Source: a virus (taxonomy: Duplodnaviria > Heunggongvirae > Uroviricota > Caudoviricetes). Taken from it: 10,613 nt of DNA. Made by a program: the position numbers and the translations under genes. Positions 2,759 through 10,613 of the stretch are shown piece after piece (position 1 is the stretch's first letter; each line of letters starts with the position of its first letter). The stretch is from the IMG/VR virus record IMGVR_UViG_2778261300_000008; one strand, written 5' to 3'. The notes beneath the pieces were generated by a model. It made no database searches. It was not told where the DNA came from and worked only from the letters and a program-made list of their open reading frames with translations.

Positions 2759-3097
2759 CTATTTCCCTGAATTTACGACGAAACTGTTCGAGCGGACTGA
2801 AGCATTCATGCTCATAACCTTCGCGGAGGTAGATAACCCGTTGTGTTTCCGGCTCCCAACGAATGACTCTGACGGGCACTCCGTAGTGATCTTTGAACCA
2901 GCAGTTAACTTGTCGCAAAGGACTGTCTCCTTCTGCCGGTTGAAATCACCCACAGCCCACTCTGCAAAGCTGTGGGTTACAATTTCCCTGTCACCTGGTA
3001 CATTCACTGCATAGCAATATTCCACCTTCGCTTTTCCACCCGGTACAGGAAGCGCAATCAGTTGCGAGCGACGGTAGTGTGTTGTTAAACTGTTCAT
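2759..3097 (-). CDS. Hypothetical protein in the early-right operon
   Basis: The 112-aa ORF is translationally coupled at both ends: its ATG overlaps the stop of the upstream gene (ATGA at 3094-3097), and its stop lies 8 nt before the replication-fragment start. I do not recognise the product. Confidence 0.45.
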
Positions 3098-3663
3098 GCG
3101 TTAGTTTCTCCACAACCAGAAGCAATCGACGCCACGACGCCCGGAGCTGCACACTCGCGGGCGTCATTACTTTCTGAAATGCAAAAAATTTTGTAGACAA
3201 GTGCTGCATGCTCCTGCAGCTTCGAAATTGAGAGATACAGCTCGTCGTTAATTGCTGTCTTCTCATGCGGTTCCACTACACCGTCTTCGATTGCTGAACG
3301 AATCTGTTTTGAATAACTGCCGATCTGTTCAATGACTTCCAGCAGACGCTGGTTAATATCGGCGTTGTCCACATCCTCGACGTCAGGAAGAGACACAAAG
3401 ACGCCATTTGCAGACTGCGCCACAGCATCAGCAATGAAGTGAGTGCCACCAGCACGCTGTAAAACCATTGCCCATCCCAGCGGGAAAATCTGATCGCCAT
3501 CTGCACGAAGGCGGTTGAATAAAGCGTTTTCTGTTACATCGAGCCAGTCAGCCGCTTCAGCGTAACCACCCGGCAACGCCGCGATAGTTTTTCTGACAGC
3601 TTTCACGTACCACTCAGGCTGTTTTTCTATTTTCCAGTGATGCTTACCCACGATTAGCCTCAT
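3094..3663 (-). CDS. Putative CII/YdaT-like early regulatory protein
   Basis: 189-aa ORF immediately downstream of the Cro-like gene, the position occupied by cII or YdaT in lambdoid prophages. The Shine-Dalgarno is weak, and the family assignment is by position and general character only. Confidence 0.45.
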
Positions 3664-3694
3664 CGTTCTGTGGTTAAAAATTGAAAGTGTTCTG

Positions 3695-3895
3695 CTAATC
3701 TTTCGGATAGATATCCGGTCTTAAGTCAGATTTCGTAATTGCACCTGACGTGCATTGCTCAAGTTTTTTAGCCAGCACAAAACTGGCTTTTTTATAGCCA
3801 TTGAAAACCAGCCGTAAGTAGCCAGGTGTTGAGCCAACTTTTCCGGCCAACTCGCCCTGCTGTTCTTTGGTTAAAGAGTCCCAATACGCTTTCAT
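3695..3895 (-). CDS. Cro/YdaS-like HTH regulator
   Basis: 66-aa product MKAYWDSLTKEQQGELAGKVGSTPGYLRLVFNGYKKASFVLAKKLEQCTSGAITKSDLRPDIYPKD is divergent from the repressor gene. GGAGGT lies about 9 nt upstream of the ATG at 3893-3895. The longer 167-aa ORF-track version (3695..4198) has no ribosome-binding site and overlaps the repressor. Confidence 0.75.
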   Translation of the reverse strand: MKAYWDSLTKEQQGELAGKVGSTPGYLRLVFNGYKKASFVLAKKLEQCTSGAITKSDLRPDIYPKD

Positions 3896-3897
3896 AC

Positions 3898-3922
3898 AAT
3901 ATGTACCTCCGGTGTACATATT
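3898..3922. promoter_or_regulatory. Operator palindrome (OR-like) overlapping the cro-side promoter -10 and leader
   Basis: Perfect 9-bp inverted repeat AATATGTAC (3898-3906) and GTACATATT (3914-3922) around a 7-bp spacer. It overlaps a minus-strand TAATAT -10 (3918-3923), with a TTGAAG -35 at 3940-3945. Confidence 0.5.
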
Positions 3923-3949
3923 ACATGATTGAAATGAACCTTCAAGATA

Positions 3950-3970
3950 CTTGTACCTTAACGGTACAAG
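3950..3970. promoter_or_regulatory. Operator palindrome (OR-like) overlapping the repressor promoter
   Basis: Perfect 8-bp inverted repeat CTTGTACC and GGTACAAG around a 5-bp spacer, sharing the TGTAC core with the other operators. A TTTAAT -10 at 3974-3979 places the transcription start near the cI ATG. Confidence 0.5.
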
Positions 3971-3985
3971 GGTTTTAATTTCGTT

Positions 3986-4660
3986 ATGAAAACAATCCAT
4001 GACATCCGGCGGTCTAACGCCAGAAAACTGAGAGATGGTGTTGGCGGGAATTCTTCCTTTGCCACTATGATTGATCGCGAGCCAACCCAGACCAGCAGGT
4101 TTATGGGAGATGGTGCTACTAAAAATATCGGTGACAGCATGGCACGACACATCGAAAAATGTTTCGACCTGCCTGTCGGATGGCTCGATCAAGAACACCA
4201 GACAACGAACATCACAAAAAAACCTGATGTTTCAATCACTAATAAACAAATCACATTAGTCCCTGTCATATCATGGGTACAGGCCGGAGCATGGAAAGAA
4301 GTTGGATATTCTGAGGTTGATTTGAGCACAGCAGAAACGTATCCCTGCCCTGTACCCTGTGGGGAAATGACTTATATCTTGCGGGTGATAGGTGATTCAA
4401 TGATTGATGAGTACCGCCCGGGAGACATGATTTTTGTCGATCCTGAAGTACCTGCCTGCCACGGTGACGACGTTATTGCATTGATGCACGATACAGGTGA
4501 AACCACCTTCAAAAGGTTGATAGAAGATGGGACACAGCGTTATCTCAAAGCGTTAAACCCAAACTGGCCTGAGCCTTACATTAAGATCAACGGTAATTGC
4601 TCTATAATTGGTACAGTGATTTTCTCAGGAAAACCAAGAAGATACAAAATCAAAGCCTAA
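3986..4660 (+). CDS. CI/C2-like prophage repressor with C-terminal S24 (LexA-type) peptidase domain
   Basis: The C-terminal half (VISWVQAGAWKEV...VIGDSMIDEYRPGDMIFVDPEV...TTFKRL...LNPNWPEPYIKINGNCSIIGTV) resembles the P22 C2 and lambda CI autocleavage domain, with an Ala-Gly site, a GDSM serine and an FKRL lysine. The N-terminal domain is diverged, there is no Shine-Dalgarno upstream, and an intrinsic terminator follows. Confidence 0.85.
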   Translation: MKTIHDIRRSNARKLRDGVGGNSSFATMIDREPTQTSRFMGDGATKNIGDSMARHIEKCFDLPVGWLDQEHQTTNITKKPDVSITNKQITLVPVISWVQAGAWKEVGYSEVDLSTAETYPCPVPCGEMTYILRVIGDSMIDEYRPGDMIFVDPEVPACHGDDVIALMHDTGETTFKRLIEDGTQRYLKALNPNWPEPYIKINGNCSIIGTVIFSGKPRRYKIKA

Positions 4661-4672
4661 TCAATGTTTATG

Positions 4673-4697
4673 AACCTGCTTCGGCAGGTTTTTTTAT
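4673..4697 (+). terminator. Intrinsic terminator of the repressor gene
   Basis: Stem AACCTGC, loop TTCG, stem GCAGGTT, then TTTTTAT, starting 13 bp after the cI stop. Confidence 0.7.
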
Positions 4698-4699
4698 AC

Positions 4700-4732
4700 T
4701 TGACAATGTACCTTTGAGATACATAATGTACC
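4700..4732 (+). promoter_or_regulatory. pL-like early-left promoter with overlapping operators (OL-like)
   Basis: TTGACA (4700-4705), a 16-bp spacer and CATAAT (4722-4727). The 11-bp perfect palindrome TACATAATGTA (4720-4730) overlaps the -10, and ATGTACC occurs at both 4706-4712 and 4726-4732, sharing the TGTAC core with the OR palindromes. Confidence 0.55.
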
Positions 4733-4853
4733 CAAGCGAAACAACGAACAGTCAGGACGCCCACGAAGTAGCCGCCTGGGGCATATGAAGTCCAGGATGA
4801 TTCGTTGAGTCATGTTGTGCCACTAGGCACTCATGTTAAAGCAGGTGTATGAA

Positions 4854-5129
4854 ATGAAAGTCCAGATTTTAAACAATAACTGTGAAGTCGTTTGGTCATA
4901 CGACATAGCCACCCCTGTAGATCAGAGCGGCGATAGCTGGACCAATGGGAAACATCAGATTATGGCTGGAGTTGTGTTCTCTTTACGCCGTGCTTTGGAA
5001 CAGGCTGAAGTATTTCCATCAGACCCTGAATGGAAATGGCCTTTTTCTATTTGTCCAAATTCGGAGAGCACATTTCAGAAAATTGGTCAGAAAGTCGCAC
5101 TCGAAGAGCATCAGCCAACTGTTTCCTGA
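4854..5129 (+). CDS. Hypothetical protein, first ORF downstream of pL (not N-like)
   Basis: AGGTG lies 6 nt upstream of the ATG at 4854 (the ORF track starts at 4833). The product is not arginine-rich and is unrecognised. Its 3' end overlaps the convergent ORF 5047..5292 by 83 nt, so one of the two may be spurious. Confidence 0.35.
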   Translation: MKVQILNNNCEVVWSYDIATPVDQSGDSWTNGKHQIMAGVVFSLRRALEQAEVFPSDPEWKWPFSICPNSESTFQKIGQKVALEEHQPTVS

Positions 5130-5292
5130 TTTTTTCAGGTAACTCGTCGGCATCGCAGAAACAACAACGCTCGATCATGTTGAAAGCCGATTCGTAGAAC
5201 TGTTTCTGCTGAGTGTCGCTGAGACAGGAAAAGAGCGACGTTACGATGATTTTATTAATTGCATTATCAAGTTCTTTTTCATCAAAAGTCAT
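5047..5292 (-). CDS. Hypothetical small Cys-containing protein, antisense to the pL transcript
   Basis: 81-aa ORF with AAGGA 8 nt upstream of the ATG. The composition is protein-like (helical, five Cys including a CCFC motif), the local DNA is AT-rich, and I do not recognise the product. Confidence 0.4.
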   Translation of the reverse strand: MTFDEKELDNAINKIIVTSLFSCLSDTQQKQFYESAFNMIERCCFCDADELPEKIRKQLADALRVRLSDQFSEMCSPNLDK

Positions 5293-5545
5293 TTGATTTT
5301 CCTTTTATGTATACGGGCTTAAAAGGATACCACCGAGCCTGAAGTGGTGAAAAGACAGGCACATAACAGCTAAGTATTTTCAACCAGAGAGAATCCTTAG
5401 CGTTGTGGTGAATGCGGCTCAGCGCACGCGGGTTAAGGTTGAAGCTGACAGTCGACCTTCTGTGAATACCCACCCGCCTGGTGTGCAACCTTCGCCAGGC
5501 ACCGGGAGGCACCCGGCACCACAACTTTATGCTGTGAGTAGTCCT

Positions 5546-5592
5546 GGCGGTACCAGCTTGTACCATTGCTTCCGGCTGGTACCGTCCTTTTT
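5546..5592 (+). terminator. Strong intrinsic terminator in the pL-operon path
   Basis: 12-bp stem GGCGGTACCAGC (5546-5557) pairs with GCTGGTACCGTC (5575-5586), with one G-U pair, around a 17-nt loop, followed by CTTTTTA. The loop contains CTTGTACC, identical to an OR operator half-site. Confidence 0.6.
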
Positions 5593-5681
5593 ACAAAACA
5601 GAGAAGAGCATCACCGGACGACGGGCTCATAACCCAATCCATCCGGGCGGCTGCCACCGCAGGTGTTCTTCTCTGTTTTGT
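5593..5681. repeat. 15-bp perfect inverted repeat flanking a 59-bp GC-rich spacer
   Basis: ACAAAACAGAGAAGA (5593-5607) and TCTTCTCTGTTTTGT (5667-5681); the pairing extends imperfectly to about 20 bp with wobbles. It lies directly after the terminator and about 50 bp before the yfdP-like start. Confidence 0.6.
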
Positions 5682-5729
5682 GGAGAAACTAACCGACCTT
5701 ACAGGGTCGATATGATGAGGAGCAGCAAA

Positions 5730-6092
5730 ATGGCTAGCGAACGCAGTACTGATGTGCAGGCATTTATCGGGGAGCTGGACGGCGGCGTATTTGAAACCAA
5801 AATCGGCGCAGTTCTCAGTGAAGTCGCTTCCGGTGTGATGAACACGAAAACCAAAGGTAAGGTCTCACTCAACCTGGAAATCGAACCATTTGATGAGAAC
5901 CGTGTGAAAATCAAACACAAACTCTCATATGTTCGCCCGACTAACCGCGGGAAAATTTCCGAAGAAGACACCACCGAAACGCCGATGTATGTCAATCGCG
6001 GTGGTCGCCTGACTATTCTGCAGGAAGACCAGGGACAATTACTGACTCTTGCCGGTGAACCTGACGGAAAACTCCGCGCAGCAGGTCATTAA
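5730..6092 (+). CDS. YfdP-like prophage protein of unknown function
   Basis: GAGGAG lies 8 nt upstream of the ATG at 5730 and falls inside the ORF-track N-terminal extension, so 5730 is the likelier start. The resulting 120-aa product MASERSTDVQAFIGELDGG... matches my recollection of KplE1/CPS-53 YfdP in size and sequence. Confidence 0.65.
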   Translation: MASERSTDVQAFIGELDGGVFETKIGAVLSEVASGVMNTKTKGKVSLNLEIEPFDENRVKIKHKLSYVRPTNRGKISEEDTTETPMYVNRGGRLTILQEDQGQLLTLAGEPDGKLRAAGH

Positions 6093-6157
6093 TATCGTTC
6101 TTAATTAACTGATTATTTATCTCATCACTGAATATCTTTATATAGTGAGGACTTATT

Positions 6158-6982
6158 ATGTCTCAGAACTTAGACGCAACCGCAATTAATCAAATCCATG
6201 CCCTTATTTCTGCTCAGGGTGTTAATGAAATTATCAGTAAGATTGGTGCCGATGCTGTGGCATTGCCTGAGAATTTCCGCATTCATGATCTGGAAAAATT
6301 TAATTTAAATCGCTTCCGTTTCCGTGGTGCGCTTTCCACTGCCAGCATCGATGACTTTACCCGTTATTCTAAAGATCTTGCAGATGAAGGCACCCGCTGC
6401 TTTATCGATGCTGATAATATGCGAGCCGTCAGTGTGCTTAACCTGGGTACTATTGATGAACCAGGTCACGCAGATAACACCGCCACTCTCAAACTGAAAA
6501 AGACAGCACCGTTCTCTGCCCTGTTGTCTGTTAACGGCGAGCGTAACTCCCAGAAGTCACTGGCAGAATGGATTGAAGACTGGGCCGACTACCTTGTGGG
6601 CTTTGATGCTAATGGTGACGCCATTCAGGCAACAAAAGCGGCTGCGGCGGTCCGTAAAATCACGATTGAAGCAAACCAGACCGCTGATTTTGAAGACAAT
6701 GACTTCAGCGGCAAACGCTCTCTGATGGAGTCTGTCGAAGCGAAAACCAAAGACATTATGCCAGTAGCATTTGAGTTTAAATGCGTTCCGTTTGAAGGCC
6801 TGAAAGAACGTCCGTTTAAATTACGCCTCAGCATTATCACTGGTGATCGCCCTGTACTGGTTCTGCGCATTATTCAGCTGGAAGCAGTACAGGAAGAAAT
6901 GGCTAACGAATTTCGTAATCTGCTTGTTGAAAAATTCAAAGACAGCAAAGTAGAAACCTTTATTGGTACTTTCACCGCCTGA
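6158..6982 (+). CDS. yfdQ: YfdQ-like protein (DUF2303 family)
   Basis: 274-aa ORF with GAGGA upstream of the ATG. Size and sequence character match recalled YfdQ of the E. coli KplE1/CPS-53 prophage, and a hairpin terminator follows. Confidence 0.75.
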
Positions 6983-6994
6983 TTTCATTACTGC

Positions 6995-7018
6995 AAATGC
7001 CCCTGCGGGGGCATTTAT
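6995..7018. terminator. Hairpin terminator after the yfdQ-like gene
   Basis: AAATGCCCC (6995-7003) pairs with GGGGCATTT around a TGCG-type loop, flanked by an A-tract and a T-tract, 13 bp after the stop. Confidence 0.55.
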
Positions 7019-7109
7019 GGAAACGTAATTAACTCAATAATCGCCTGATGGCGAGGGTTTTCTTTAACCAAAATTCAGCGCGGTGCAGCGCATATACGTG
7101 GAGAACAAA

Positions 7110-7646
7110 ATGTCATTTATTAAAACTTTTTCCGGGAAGCATTTTTATTATGACAGGATAAATAAAGACGACATCGATATTAACGATATCGCGGTTTCCC
7201 TTTCAAATATCTGTCGCTTTGCCGGTCATCTTTCGCACTTCTACAGCGTCGCCCAACATGCGGTTCTTTGCAGCCAGTTGGTGCCGCAGGAATTTGCTTT
7301 TGAAGCGTTAATGCATGATGCAACAGAAGCGTATTGCCAGGACATTCCCGCACCACTGAAACGCCTTCTTCCTGACTATAAACAAATGGAAGAAAAAATA
7401 GACGCCGTAATCCGTGAGAAATACGGGTTACCCCCAGTTATGAGTACGCCCGTGAAATATGCCGATCTCATCATGCTGGCAACCGAACGCCGCGATCTCG
7501 GGCTTGATGATGGCTCTTTCTGGCCTGTACTGGAAGGTATCCCGGCAACAGAGATGTTCAACGTGATTCCACTGGCACCGGGCCATGCCTACGGGATGTT
7601 TATGGAACGCTTTAACGAGTTATCGGAGTTACGCAAATGCGCATGA
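7110..7646 (+). CDS. yfdR: YfdR-like HD-domain phosphohydrolase
   Basis: An H...HD motif is present (AQHAVLCSQLV...EALMHDATEAYCQD). The product from MSFIKTFSGKHFYYD is 178 aa with GGAG upstream, matching recalled K-12 YfdR. The ORF track begins 27 nt earlier at 7083. Confidence 0.8.
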   Translation: MSFIKTFSGKHFYYDRINKDDIDINDIAVSLSNICRFAGHLSHFYSVAQHAVLCSQLVPQEFAFEALMHDATEAYCQDIPAPLKRLLPDYKQMEEKIDAVIREKYGLPPVMSTPVKYADLIMLATERRDLGLDDGSFWPVLEGIPATEMFNVIPLAPGHAYGMFMERFNELSELRKCA

Positions 7647-7960
7647 ATGTTTTCGAAATGGAAGGGTTTCTTCGTGGGAGATGTGTACCGCGAGATCTGA
7701 AAGTAAATGAAACAGATGCTGAATACCTGGTGCGTAAATTCGATGCGCTTGAAGCTAAATGTGCAGCACAGGAAAACAAAGTAATACCAGTGTCAACTGA
7801 ACTGCCACCAGCAAATGAAAGTGTTTTGTTATTCGATGCTAACGGAGAAGGCTGGCTAATTGGTTGGCGTTCTCTCTGGTACACCTGGGGACAAAAAGAA
7901 ACCGGAGAATGGCAGTGGACATTTCAGGTCTTCAGTCTCCGCTGCATACTGTCCAGGTGA
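7637..7960 (+). CDS. YfdS-like hypothetical protein immediately upstream of int (possibly truncated)
   Basis: 107-aa ORF with GGAG 8 nt upstream; an alternative ATG at 7643 makes an ATGA overlap with the yfdR-like stop. It is mildly acidic and lacks an obvious HTH, so it does not look like a typical excisionase. Confidence 0.5.
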   Translation: MRMNVFEMEGFLRGRCVPRDLKVNETDAEYLVRKFDALEAKCAAQENKVIPVSTELPPANESVLLFDANGEGWLIGWRSLWYTWGQKETGEWQWTFQVFSLRCILSR

Positions 7961-7991
7961 GCGCGGGTGATGGCATAACAGAGGAAAGAAA

Positions 7992-9155
7992 ATGTCACTC
8001 TTCCGCAGAGGTGAAATATGGTACGCCAGTTTCACATTGCCGAACGGTAAAAGATTTAAACAGTCTCTTGGAACAAAGGACAAAAGGCAGGCGACAGAAC
8101 TCCATGACAAGCTAAAGGCTGAAGCATGGCGGGTCAGCAAACTTGGTGAAATACCTGATATAACGTTCGAGGAAGCGTGTGTCAGGTGGCTTGAAGAGAA
8201 AGCACATAAAAAATCACTGGACGATGACAAAAGCCGGATCGGATTCTGGCTTCAACATTTCGCAGGAATGCAACTAAGAGACATTACTGAATCAAAAATT
8301 TATTCAGCAATGCAGAAAATGACGAACCGGCGTCATGAGGAAAACTGGAGACTCAGGGCAGAAGCATGCAGAAAAAAAGGGAAACCTGTTCCAGAATACA
8401 CGCCAAAACCAGCGTCCGTTGCAACGAAGGCTACGCATCTTTCATTTATAAAGGCCCTACTAAGAGCCGCAGAGCGTGAATGGAAAATGCTGGATAAGGC
8501 ACCAATTATTAAAGTGCCTCAACCAAAGAATAAACGGATCCGCTGGCTGGAGCCCCATGAAGCACAAAGGCTGATTGATGAATGTCCGGAGCCATTAAAG
8601 TCTGTTGTTGAATTTGCACTGGCAACAGGCTTAAGACGCTCGAACATCATCAACCTTGAATGGCAACAAATAGACATGCAGCGCCGGGTGGCATGGATAA
8701 ACCCGGAAGAGAGTAAATCAAACCGCGCAATTGGCGTTGCGCTGAATGATACTGCATGTCGCGTTTTGAAAAAACAAATCGGGAATCATCACCGTTGGGT
8801 ATTTGTGTACAAGGAAAGCTGTACCAAACCAGACGGAACGAAAGCGCCAACAGTAAGGAAGATGCGGTATGACGCAAACACAGCCTGGAAAGCGGCGCTG
8901 AGACGGGCTGGTATTGATGATTTCAGATTTCACGACTTGAGACACACCTGGGCAAGTTGGCTGGTTCAAGCCGGAGTCCCGTTGTCAGTGTTACAGGAAA
9001 TGGGAGGCTGGGAGTCTATCGAAATGGTTCGTCGATATGCTCACCTTGCACCTAATCACCTTACCGAACACGCACGGCAAATAGACTCGATCCTGAACCC
9101 ATCGGTCCCAAATTCGTCCCAGTCAAAAAATAAGGAAGGTACTAATGATGTGTAA
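7992..9155 (+). CDS. int: Tyrosine integrase, P22 Int type
   Basis: 387-aa product [48 protein letters not shown]...[39 protein letters not shown] closely matches recalled P22 Int, including the catalytic R...HxxR...Y box. GAGGAAAG precedes the ATG, and the stop lies 15 nt from the tRNA 3' end. Confidence 0.95.
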
Positions 9156-9170
9156 CTTATTGATTTAAAT

Positions 9171-9246
9171 GGTGCCGATAATAGGAGTCGAACCTACGAC
9201 CTTCGCATTACGAATGCGCTGCTCTACCAACTGAGCTATATCGGCC
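9171..9246 (-). tRNA. thrW: tRNA-Thr (anticodon CGU)
   Basis: The minus strand reads GCCGATATAGCTCAGTTGGTAGAGCAGCGCATTCGTAATGCGAAGGTCGTAGGTTCGACTCCTATTATCGGCACCA, a 76-nt cloverleaf with a TTCGACT T-loop, anticodon CGT and encoded CCA. P22 Int-type elements are known to target thrW. Confidence 0.92.
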
Positions 9247-9359: not shown

Positions 9360-10613
9360 TTACGCACGAATGGTGTAATCACCAATGCCGATCCACTTGT
9401 AAGTGGTCAGTGCTTCCAGCCCCATTGGGCCACGCGCGTGGAGTTTTTGTGTGCTTACCGCCACTTCCGCACCCAGACCAAACTGGCCGCCGTCGGTAAA
9501 ACGCGTAGAGGCGTTAACGTAAACAGCGGACGAATCCACTTCGTTAACAAAACGCTGGGCGTTGCGCATATCGCGGGTCAGGATCGCATCGGAGTGTTGT
9601 GTGCCGTGTTCACGAATATGGGCGATGGCATCGTCAAGATCGCTGACGATTTTAACGTTCAAATCTAATGACAGAAATTCATCGTCATACTCTTCGGCTT
9701 TAACCGCCACCACCTTCGCAGGGCCTGTCTGCAACTGCGCCAGCGCAGCTGCATCTGCGTGTAATGTCACGCCGCTTTCCGCCATTTGTTTGCTTAATGC
9801 GGGCAGGAAGCTATCGGCGATGTTTTTATTCACCAGCAACGTTTCTACCGTATTACATGTGCTCGGTCGCTGAGTTTTCGCGTTGACGATCACTTTTAAT
9901 GCTTCAGCGATCTCTGCGCTTTCATCAACGTAAATATGGCATACGCCTATACCACCTGTGATCACCGGGATTGTCGACTGTTCGCGGCACAGTTTATGCA
10001 AACCAGCCCCGCCGCGCGGGATCAGCATGTCGATGTATTTATCCATACGCAGCATTTCACTGACCAGCGCACGGTCAGGATTATCAATCGCCTGCACGGC
10101 ACCCGCCGGTAAGCCACAGGATTTCAGGGCGTCCTGAATCACCGCCACCGTTGCCGCGTTAGTGCGACAGGTTTCTTTGCCACCACGCAGGATCACCGCA
10201 TTACCGGTTTTCAGGCACAGCGAAGCGACATCAACCGTCACGTTCGGGCGCGCTTCATAAATCACGCCAATCACCCCCAGCGGCACGCGACGACGCTCAA
10301 GACGCAGGCCGCTGTCCAGTACGCTGCCATCGATTACCTGCCCCACCGGATCGGCGAGGTTACACACCTGGCGCACATCATCGGCAATGCCTTTCAGCCG
10401 TGCGGGCGTCAGTGCCAGACGGTCAAGCATCGCTTCGCCAAGGCCATTGGCACGCGCGTCAGCAACATCCTGGGCGTTAGCGTTGAGGATGATTTCGCTT
10501 TGTGCTTCCAGTTCATCGGCGATTTTTTCCAGCACGCGATTTTTTTCGCGGCTGGAGAGTTGCGCTAATTTATACGAGGCTTGCTTCGCGGCAATGCCCA
10601 TTTGTTCCAGCAT
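9360..10613 (-). CDS. proA: Gamma-glutamyl phosphate reductase
   Basis: The 417-aa product [49 protein letters not shown]... matches recalled E. coli ProA over its full length. The start codon sits at the window edge, and proA next to thrW is the known chromosomal context. Confidence 0.95.

Follow-up and report, generated by a model that had tools for sequence, protein, structure and literature searches.

The window, that is the whole 10,613-nucleotide stretch of DNA analysed here, is confirmed to carry a decayed SfV-type prophage at thrW, whose yfd genes are the known yfdPQRS genes in an arrangement that has already been published. What is new here is a 539-bp deletion private to this prophage, together with conserved RNA hairpins around yfdPQ. 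As the best explanation, and one that we hold to be fairly probable, we propose that the block forms the distal portion of an early-left (pL) operon, repressed by cI, in a SfV/SfIV-type lambdoid prophage at thrW that is now defective. The features discussed below are located in Table 1.

Table 1. Location of the genes and of the DNA and RNA elements described in the text (positions in the window)
Feature	Positions	Strand	Description
Putative pL and operators	4700-4743	+	TTGACA-16 nt-CATAAT at 4700-4727; operator-like half-palindromes at 4707-4723 and 4727-4743
STnc100/PasD-family prophage sRNA-like element	5372-5594	+	Rfam RF02076, 44.7 bits (gathering score 47), E 3e-7
yfdP 5' leader	5593-5711	+	Long hairpin 5593-5681, conserved GGAGAAAC motif 5682-5689, small GC hairpin 5692-5711
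yfdP	5730-6092	+	120 aa, intact; 119/120 identity to K-12 YfdP
yfdQ	6158-6982	+	274 aa, DUF2303, intact; 271/274 identity to K-12 YfdQ
yfdQ-yfdR intergenic hairpins	6995-7065	+	9-bp AAAUGCCCC/GGGGCAUUU hairpin 6995-7016; 5-bp hairpin, then GGGUUUUCUUU, 7041-7065
yfdR	7110-7646	+	178 aa, HD-domain phosphohydrolase, intact; 174/178 identity to K-12 YfdR
yfdS'	7637-7960	+	107 aa, truncated fusion ORF
Junction of the 539-bp deletion	7929-7932		From alignments to E. coli WY517-2, MEI7BO1-21 and SfV
xis remnant	7933-8115	+	C-terminal 60 codons (residues 57-116) of a P22/SfV-type excisionase, from translations
int	7992-9155	+	SfV/P22-type tyrosine integrase, 387 aa, intact; Pfam Phage_integrase, E 3.5e-48
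thrW tRNA-Thr(CGT), attachment site	9170-9245	-	ARAGORN; Rfam tRNA, 71.8 bits

Gene content, integration site and proposed operon organisation

The initial annotation had likened the four + strand genes to yfdPQRS, and comparison with the proteins of the K-12 MG1655 CPS-53 prophage (BLASTP) bore this out: YfdP (E 3e-90), YfdQ and YfdR are 99%, 99% and 98% identical to their orthologues, YfdS matches over residues 1-98 (94/98) and is divergent afterwards, and the K-12 order P-Q-R-S on one strand is kept. It had also assigned the integrase to the P22 type at thrW rather than to IntS, correctly so. Indeed, int encodes a tyrosine recombinase 99.5% identical to that of SfIV, 99% to those of SfV, SfII and SfI and 90% to P22-group Int, and unrelated to IntS beyond the family level; thrW adjoins proA (9360-10613), and this proA-thrW-int context is also found in E. 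coli genomes. The proposal that the Yfd block and a P22-type integrase had been combined by a new modular exchange was not retained, because SfV and SfIV have the same published order cro/cI/orf33/yfdP/Q/R/S/T/xis/int at thrW (orf28-32-xis-int), as PMC4776307 also notes. This settles the annotation as an SfV-type prophage remnant at thrW, with no new exchange event required.

The block is present in thousands of E. coli genomes, in some of them at thrW; copies of yfdP, yfdQ and yfdR occur in 3,595 of the 5,426 complete genomes of this species, and the cI...yfdP-yfdQ-yfdR...int arrangement recurs in prophages of Klebsiella, Yersinia and Buttiauxella. The yfd cluster is common in the early-left operons of lambdoid phages (PMC12315714). 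A role as recombination module, whose position the block occupies, was ruled out since some phages have both the cluster and a complete Rec module (PMC12315714). A search for defence systems with PADLOC gave no match for any protein of the block.

The organisation of the window fits a lambdoid early-left operon, with a putative repressor-controlled promoter that would read from the immunity region towards xis/int. The putative pL, situated just after the cI terminator (4672-4691), is the best sigma-70 match of the window (11/12), and the TGTACC-N5-GGTACA-like repeats that overlap it are common to the cro/cI intergenic region (3902-3918 and 3952-3968). In Cronobacter L090 the same promoter/operator sequence precedes the yfdP leader by about 90 nt, and a promoter is annotated at the corresponding position in phage Ayreon. 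Every gene from 4833 to int is on the same strand, and neither scan nor inspection revealed a convincing sigma-70 promoter in the interval 5594-5730 or in the spacer that separates yfdQ from yfdR. Along the window, pL/OL (4700-4743) is followed in turn by orf33, the STnc100-like sRNA and its terminator, the leader hairpin, yfdP-yfdQ, the 3' hairpin(s), yfdR, yfdS', the deletion, int and thrW. In the intact phage, the block genes would be expressed early once cI is inactivated; cI being a LexA-like S24 repressor, this presumably occurs via the SOS response. We infer pL, its operators, SOS inducibility and the RNase III cleavage considered below from sequence features.

A private deletion and the putative replication-control genes

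The deletion junction lies between 7930 and 7931 (…TTTCAGGTC joined to TTCAGTCTCC…), with a microhomology of 2 nt. The 539 bp removed comprise the last 22 codons of yfdS, the whole of yfdT and codons 1-56 of xis. The 40-nt junction sequence was found in none of the 5,426 complete E. coli genomes and is absent from 89 related loci and from the GTDB species representatives. The 107-aa ORF is truncated, as had been suspected: of the 120 residues of YfdS, yfdS' encodes the first 98, with 9 residues read out of frame from xis DNA appended to them, and it no longer matches DUF551, which covers residues 50-117 of the intact protein. The xis remnant, which overlaps the start of int, has lost the HTH_17 domain (residues 6-36 of intact Xis), so that the cognate excisionase of the thrW integrase is not intact in the window and only its residues 57-116 are left. 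This lineage-specific deletion inactivates xis and thereby locks the element in place; it also probably disables the published anti-initiation set. Q, the holin, the early-right genes that lie downstream and the greater part of the replication gene are also gone from the prophage. Its cI is intact (223/224 identity to SfV cI). The loss of yfdT, the yfdS end, Xis and the replication and late genes would leave a locked-in remnant.

These losses are also what would be seen if the block were decaying, unexpressed prophage cargo without current function, its intact ORFs reflecting recent acquisition and not selection. The missing replication, early-right, Q and holin functions, the absence of yfdT and of the 5' half of xis and the truncated yfdS all agree with such decay, and the operon should be repressed because cI and the operators are intact. 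We nevertheless regard this as somewhat unlikely: yfdP, yfdQ and yfdR have kept their full length and share 98-99% identity with the widely retained copies of 3,595/5,426 complete E. coli genomes, and CPS-53 genes including yfdQ and yfdS reportedly affect stress tolerance, according to work cited in PMC4776307.

Regarding yfdR, the start codon is the ATG at 7110, preceded by a GGAG Shine-Dalgarno sequence, with a GTG at 7083 as an alternative upstream. The initial annotation had stated that YfdR binds DnaA and that overexpression of yfdQRST inhibits the initiation of chromosomal replication; both were indeed reported for K-12 by Noguchi & Katayama 2016 (PMC4776307). In that study, YfdR binds DnaA domain I in a Phe46-dependent manner and competes moderately with DiaA and DnaB. 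The minimal set inhibiting initiation at oriC on overexpression is YfdQ and YfdR plus YfdS or YfdT, YfdP being dispensable, and yfdQ together with yfdR is genetically required for suppressing overinitiation. The phenotype comes from multicopy or overexpression conditions, a yfdQRST deletion has no initiation phenotype, and the authors allow for a possible artefact (PMC4776307). From its 98% identity to K-12 YfdR, the YfdR of the window is likely also a DnaA-binding initiation inhibitor, and in the intact phage the block genes would damp initiation on the host chromosome, analogous to the action of lambda P on DnaA. Replication control by the block has been reported for the K-12 proteins (PMC4776307), but the required gene set is incomplete in the window, where yfdS ends after codon 98. 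As yfdT is deleted and yfdS is short of 22 DUF551 codons, the replication-control activity may be lost here, and we consider the anti-initiation activity of the block as probably weakened or lost.

It has to be considered whether the block mainly manipulates nucleotide pools, YfdR acting as a 5'-deoxynucleotidase during phage development and its binding to DnaA being incidental. The HD motif residues of YfdR are intact: H50, H69-D70, E73, D78 and D119 correspond to HD residues in an alignment with Atu1052 (PDB 2gz4) and are unchanged in K-12 YfdR, all four substitutions between the two YfdR proteins lying outside the motifs. The protein belongs to phrog_318 (E 3e-110), and PGAP and PHROG label the family 5'-deoxynucleotidase or dNMP phosphatase. 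However, its weak match to the Pfam YfbR-like family (PF12917) is just short of the cut-off (25.0 bits versus 25.9) and its score against the YfbR equivalog NCBIfam NF003009 is far short (20.4 versus 122), so that YfdR is to be classified, from these profile scores, as a distant HD relative and not as a YfbR orthologue. Moreover, an enzyme activity does not explain the need for YfdQ and for YfdS or YfdT, and we judge this possibility very unlikely.

The yfdP-yfdQ pair and its RNA hairpins

The yfdP and yfdQ genes form a pair that is invariant in eight genera: at the loci examined, yfdP homologues are always directly upstream of yfdQ, and it is the downstream gene that varies. YfdP belongs to phrog_204 and its homologues carry the precomputed Pfam family PF27127. 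YfdQ is a DUF2303 protein (Pfam PF10065, 309.4 bits for a gathering threshold of 26.6, profile positions 2-269 of 269) and a homologue has a deposited structure of 36 chains (PDB 9o7m, 'YfdQ Protein', E 1e-44), an entry that we did not find mentioned in any paper. The AF2 model of YfdQ (pLDDT 76.5) gave no informative fold relatives in a fold library that does not include PDB 9o7m, and relatives with solved structures were looked for and not found for YfdP and YfdS. In most lineages YfdR comes next after yfdQ, but a 411-aa protein takes this place in Cronobacter and a 100-aa protein in Xenorhabdus. Since yfdR is not always next to yfdQ, the yfdPQ pair may function independently of YfdR and DnaA.

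Taken further, yfdP-yfdQ could be an autonomous two-gene cassette (for example for counter-defence, or a host- or DNA-targeting assembly) unrelated to DnaA control, with YfdR/S/T as mere neighbours and the YfdQ requirement on overexpression as an indirect effect. Besides the invariance of the pair in front of differing genes and the 36-chain assembly, this agrees with its own conserved 5' leader hairpin and 3' hairpin (see below), with a DUF2303 protein reported as virion-associated in phage JC1 (PMC9144972) and with the altered production of another phage upon yfdQ deletion or overexpression in K-12 (bioRxiv 10.1101/413146). On the other hand, suppression of overinitiation genetically needed yfdQ together with yfdR, YfdR does follow yfdQ in most lineages, and neither a defence or anti-defence family match nor an informative fold match was found. 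Overall, we see such autonomy as unlikely.

Two terminators had been proposed to flank yfdPQ and to make it a unit separate from yfdR/S and int. Both hairpins exist, and yfdPQ is a discrete conserved pair between conserved hairpins; the upstream one (5546-5592), however, ends a putative STnc100-like sRNA, the downstream one (6995-7016) has a tail poor in U, and the yfdQ-yfdR hairpins probably do not isolate a transcription unit. The upstream element matches RF02076 over its full length (model positions 1-206), but its 44.7 bits are below the gathering score of 47, and it is best treated, on this alignment, as a divergent relative within the STnc100/PasD group. Its fold is more stable than expected (MFE z -3.3) and its 3' end is a hairpin (5546-5586) with a 13-bp stem (dG -23 kcal/mol, z -3.7) followed by CCUUUUUAC. 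Relative to our criterion for intrinsic terminators (GC-rich stem with at least 5 consecutive U in the next 8 nt), region 5546-5594 has the 13-bp stem and UUUUU, yet the loop is of 15 nt and the scan did not call it. The same match is present in SfV and E. coli WY517-2, and among 89 related loci the core motif is found in about half and the terminator hairpin in nearly all. The 'frameshifted hypothetical protein' annotated by PGAP upstream of yfdP is better explained as this STnc100/PasD-like sRNA. A second STnc100 match (6974-7153, 22.7 bits, E 0.03-0.14) was rejected, its poor alignment merely tracking two intergenic hairpins.

The yfdP leader begins with a hairpin (5593-5681) with an outer stem of about 20 bp, an inverted repeat with 25-nt arms, and is followed by the yfdP Shine-Dalgarno sequence (GAGGAG, 5717-5722). 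The leader fold is very stable (dG -45.5, z -7.3) and has no match in Rfam families. When the leaders of divergent genera were folded individually with shuffling controls, Klebsiella, Yersinia, Cronobacter, Serratia and Xenorhabdus all proved to have equivalent long stems, of different sequence, ahead of yfdP (z -5.2 to -8.4). Downstream, hairpin 6995-7016 has a good 9-bp stem (dG -16.5, z -2.8), whereas its tail, only AUUUAU (AUUUAUGG), lacks a run of 5 U. It is kept after every yfdQ examined, in eight genera, and in an alignment of six sequences 100% of cells are paired and 4 of the 10 pairs show double compensatory changes, values that none of 500 shuffles reached; being conserved with compensatory changes, this hairpin is not due to chance. 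The second one (7041-7054) is small with a better U tract, its 5-bp stem and UUUUCUUU (7041-7065) being called by the terminator scan; it shows compensatory changes in K-12 and Buttiauxella but is missing from Yersinia, Serratia and Xenorhabdus. Hairpin 1 is identical in sequence in K-12, and there one PBAD promoter placed in front of yfdQ gives prominent YfdQ, R, S and T bands (PMC4776307). The poor U tracts and this read-through speak against a separate transcription unit isolated by the hairpins, and suggest that they are leaky and not strong terminators.

Within the pL operon, yfdP-yfdQ would form a cassette that is discrete in evolution. RNase III probably processes its long dsRNA leader, the 3' hairpin would act as leaky terminator or mRNA stabiliser, and both together would yield a separate, more abundant yfdPQ message. 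A bolder proposal, which we consider quite unlikely, is that the leader hairpin, the GUGGAGAAAC motif and the post-yfdQ hairpin constitute a cis-acting RNA system, so far undescribed, in lambdoid phages that lack N, either a put-like RNA letting RNA polymerase pass the downstream hairpins and reach xis/int or, less novel, an RNase III-dependent switch setting the yfdPQ:yfdR-int ratio. Either of these would make yfdPQ a mobile expression cassette that is self-contained. The pair, flanked by covarying hairpins without Rfam family, offers a handle on the function of very common prophage genes.

Comparison with known systems

Lambda P offers a functional analogy, as a DnaA-binding phage protein that blocks initiation in the host (PMC4776307); lambda P targets DnaA domain III whereas YfdR targets domain I, and the sequences are unrelated. 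B. subtilis SirA is likewise an analogue only in function, as an inhibitor acting on DnaA, with no sequence relationship. The dicBF operon of the Qin prophage, also unrelated in sequence, offers another functional analogy, that of an sRNA embedded in a repressor-controlled prophage operon; Faubladier is said to have described in 1990 the maturation of the DicF sRNA from this immunity-controlled operon. A Klebsiella prophage has a DicF-like match at the equivalent place, which is weak (31 bits). With the STnc100/PasD prophage sRNAs of RF02076, the element of the window shares the conserved CACCGGGAGGCACCCGGCACC core, the 3' terminator hairpin and the prophage location; it differs in its surroundings, since this putative sRNA precedes yfdP within an early-left operon and is neither placed after stx nor close to esterase genes.

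The closest systems are the Shigella flexneri serotype-converting phages SfV (orf32-orf28, xis, int) and SfIV (orf34-orf30), which share with the window the gene order from cro to int, the thrW attachment, 97-98% DNA identity over 3061-7930, and near-identical Int (99-99.5%) and cI (223/224). In contrast to these phages, the window is without the 539 bp (yfdS 3' end, yfdT and xis 5' half), the Q/holin region and the greater part of the replication gene, and no gtr genes are visible within it. The K-12 CPS-53/KplE1 prophage has Yfd proteins 98-99% identical to those of the window, in the same order and with the same intergenic hairpins, and it keeps yfdT and the full yfdS. However, it uses IntS at argW and the TorI excisionase, and pL, the STnc100-like sRNA and the leader hairpin of yfdP have been lost from it. 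Since CPS-53 keeps only the first ~55 nt of the P22-type xis (ypdJ region), it is the derived, recombinant form, and this xis stub gives the direction of the mosaic exchange.

The yfd genes and their prophage setting

The four plus-strand genes of the block at 5730-7960 are nearly identical to the corresponding proteins of the cryptic prophage CPS-53 of E. coli K-12 (Table), which bears out their initial annotation as yfd genes. The HD-domain ligands, whose loss would have spoken against the initial annotation, are kept in YfdR (H50, H69-D70, E73, D78 and D119), which is only distantly related to YfbR. The block is extremely widespread, with matches in 3,595 of the 5,426 complete E. coli genomes, and in the phages SfV, SfIV, mEp460, Ayreon and Stx2c phages.

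Table. Coordinates of the features in the window
Feature	Position	Strand	Description
Sigma-70 match	4700-4727		TTGACA-16 nt-CATAAT; best in window; directly after cI terminator 4672-4691
STnc100/PasD-like prophage sRNA	5372-5594	+	Rfam RF02076, full-length match, 44.7 bits, E 3e-7
yfdP leader hairpin	5593-5681	+	outer stem ~20 bp (20-25 bp); dG -45.5, z -7.3
yfdP	5730-6092	+	119/120 identical to K-12 CPS-53
yfdQ	6158-6982	+	271/274 identical to K-12 CPS-53; full-length DUF2303 protein
Second small hairpin	7041-7054		then UUUUCUUU; kept in closer relatives only
yfdR	7110-7646	+	174/178 identical to K-12 CPS-53
yfdS'	7637-7960	+	first 98 residues: 94 identical to K-12 CPS-53, divergent after
int	7992-9155		identity 99.5% to SfIV Int, 99% to SfV, SfII and SfI Int, 90% to P22-group integrases
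thrW, tRNA-Thr(CGT)	9170-9245	-	
proA	9360-10613	-	

To the left of proA and thrW, the window contains a lambdoid prophage. The Int identities and the adjoining tRNA-Thr(CGT) agree with the proposal of a P22-type integrase at thrW instead of IntS, and comparison of this Int with IntS of CPS-53 gave no meaningful similarity. The immunity region is intact and includes a Cro-like gene, a LexA-like S24 repressor of 224 aa (223/224 identical to SfV cI) and a CII/CP76-like gene. The prophage is broken left of ~2515, at a second breakpoint (~2454-2515) where the HTH_36 replication gene, down to 78 codons, is joined to a lysozyme/Rz cassette of a different module that is only ~74% identical to the version of related prophages. 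The Q antiterminator, the holin and the remaining early-right genes are missing from the window prophage. Between the DUF1441 gene and Rz, ~800 nt (680-1490) contain only short, mutually overlapping ORFs, none longer than 92 aa, together with a strong terminator-like hairpin on the minus strand (1319-1300) and a non-significant STnc560 match (21 bits). Two convergent ORFs, 4833-5129 (+) and 5047-5292 (-), overlap by 83 nt and belong to separate PHROG families (phrog_3195 and phrog_3311); likely at most one is a real gene, and the SfV annotation has only the plus-strand orf33 there.

The predicted promoter at 4700-4727 is overlapped by two operator-like repeats (4707-4723 and 4727-4743) of the TGTACC…GGTACA palindrome type also present between cro and cI, and the same promoter/operator sequence is found in a Cronobacter prophage, ~90 nt upstream of the yfdP leader. 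From these sequence features, the yfd block is read as part of a putative cI-repressed early-left operon, in agreement with the description of yfdP/Q/R-type clusters as common in lambdoid early-left operons (PMC12315714).

RNA structures around yfdPQ

The initial annotation placed yfdP and yfdQ, as a separate unit, between two terminators. The first (5546-5592) includes a real hairpin but corresponds to the 3' end of the STnc100-like sRNA, whose score lies just below the RF02076 gathering score of 47. This element contains the near-invariant core CACCGGGAGGCACCCGGCACC and closes with a 13-bp hairpin (5546-5586) followed by CCUUUUUAC; SfV gave the same match, as did E. coli WY517-2. The prophage sRNA STnc100 was recently tied to the PasD family (bioRxiv 10.64898/2026.05.13.724894). 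In RefSeq genomes, the equivalent stretch is labelled by PGAP as a 'frameshifted hypothetical protein' pseudogene (loci L001 6006-6316 and L005 10263-10573). About half of the 89 related loci have this RNA body; the others have another one, of Ayreon type, that shares its closing helix and its terminator. K-12 lacks the entire region. In a Klebsiella prophage (L086 3385-3432), a weak DicF-like match (31 bits, below threshold) upstream of yfdP occupies the place of the STnc100-like RNA in E. coli. Beyond the CII-like gene, SfV (L004 256-444) gave clear matches to C4 antisense RNA (82 bits) and IsrK (64 bits), in a part that is not present in the window.

From the sRNA terminator to yfdP, the leader is composed of the long hairpin, GGAGAAAC, a small GC hairpin (to 5711) and the yfdP ribosome-binding site. 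Long stems upstream of yfdP were also found in Klebsiella, Yersinia, Cronobacter, Serratia and Xenorhabdus (z -5.2 to -8.4; 0/200 shuffles folding as well for each); the structure is kept across six genera but the sequence is not, several being unrelated, and no Rfam family matches it. A GUGGAG(A/U)AAC motif lies 3' of the long hairpin in the window (5593-5711) and in five related loci (L086, L087, L090, L091 and L092). yfdP adjoins yfdQ in 8/8 genera examined, and the next gene is usually YfdR-like, except in Cronobacter and Xenorhabdus. Every yfdQ stop is followed, 10-25 nt downstream, by a GC-cored hairpin between AAAU and AUUU; in a six-sequence alignment all cells pair, with double compensatory changes in 4/10 pairs (shuffles matching, 0/500).

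The shared adjacency and conserved hairpins therefore support yfdPQ as a discrete unit in terms of evolution and RNA structure. Separation from yfdR by termination is unlikely: the U tract of the 6995-7016 hairpin (AUUUAUGG) is poor, and the terminator scan did not call this hairpin. [quoted passage not shown] The yfdQ-yfdR hairpins are therefore probably leaky at most. We suggest that RNase III may cut at the ~20-bp leader stem and that the hairpin 3' of yfdQ could be an attenuator or stabiliser; together they would give a distinct yfdPQ message inside the operon.

A private deletion and its bearing on function

The suspected truncation of the 107-aa ORF was confirmed against K-12 YfdS and SfV-type relatives. 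Alignments with E. coli WY517-2, E. coli MEI7BO1-21 and SfV indicate that the window lacks 539 bp, the junction at 7930/7931 (…TTTCAGGTC/TTCAGTCTCC…) having a 2-nt microhomology. This deletion removed YfdS residues 99-120, which explains why the yfdS' ORF has no DUF551 match, as well as the whole yfdT and Xis residues 1-56 including the HTH. As yfdS codon 98 is joined out of frame to xis codon 57, the ORF consists of YfdS(1-98) and 9 further residues that are out of frame. Searches with the 40-nt junction sequence found no match in the 5,426 complete E. coli genomes, the 89 related loci or the GTDB species representatives; the deletion, which cripples xis, yfdS and yfdT, is private to the window's lineage. 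What interest remains lies in this deletion and in the RNA structures flanking yfdPQ, which are conserved and uncatalogued.

The published findings given in the initial annotation were stated correctly. Binding of K-12 YfdR to domain I of DnaA depends on Phe46, with moderate competition with DiaA and DnaB, and initiation at oriC is inhibited by multicopy yfdQ plus yfdR, together with yfdS or yfdT, yfdP not being needed (PMC4776307). Deletion of the K-12 genes gave no phenotype and the authors allow a possible overexpression artefact (PMC4776307). Judging from their sequences, YfdQ and YfdR of the window should behave like their K-12 counterparts; the published minimal inhibitory set is incomplete because yfdT is gone and yfdS truncated. 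The PDB holds a 36-chain assembly of a YfdQ homologue (9o7m, 'YfdQ Protein', E 1e-44), for which a literature search found no paper, and the AF2 model of YfdQ yielded no informative fold relatives. A DUF2303 protein of Burkholderia phage JC1 is reported as virion-associated (PMC9144972).

Comparison with SfV and CPS-53

The combination of a P22-type integrase with the yfd block had been taken to imply modular exchange. The combination is not new: the Shigella flexneri phage SfV already has exactly this order: cro, cI, orf33, orf32 (yfdP), orf31 (yfdQ), orf30 (yfdR), orf29 (yfdS), orf28 (yfdT), xis and int. The same cluster was noted for SfIV (PMC3851460), and the SfV homologues of the yfd genes were pointed out by Noguchi and Katayama (PMC4776307); the arrangement is thus already described. 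Collinearity between K-12 CPS-53 and the SfV-type sequence extends past yfdT to ~55 nt into a P22-type xis; beyond this point, towards torI, they diverge. The xis stub, whose start ATG is changed to ATA, is annotated in K-12 as ypdJ (L002 12095-12235) and is a relic of the SfV-like yfdT-xis-int arrangement from which CPS-53 derives. This collinearity into xis therefore marks CPS-53 as the recombinant derivative, the arrangement at thrW, that of SfV and the window, being the ancestral one.
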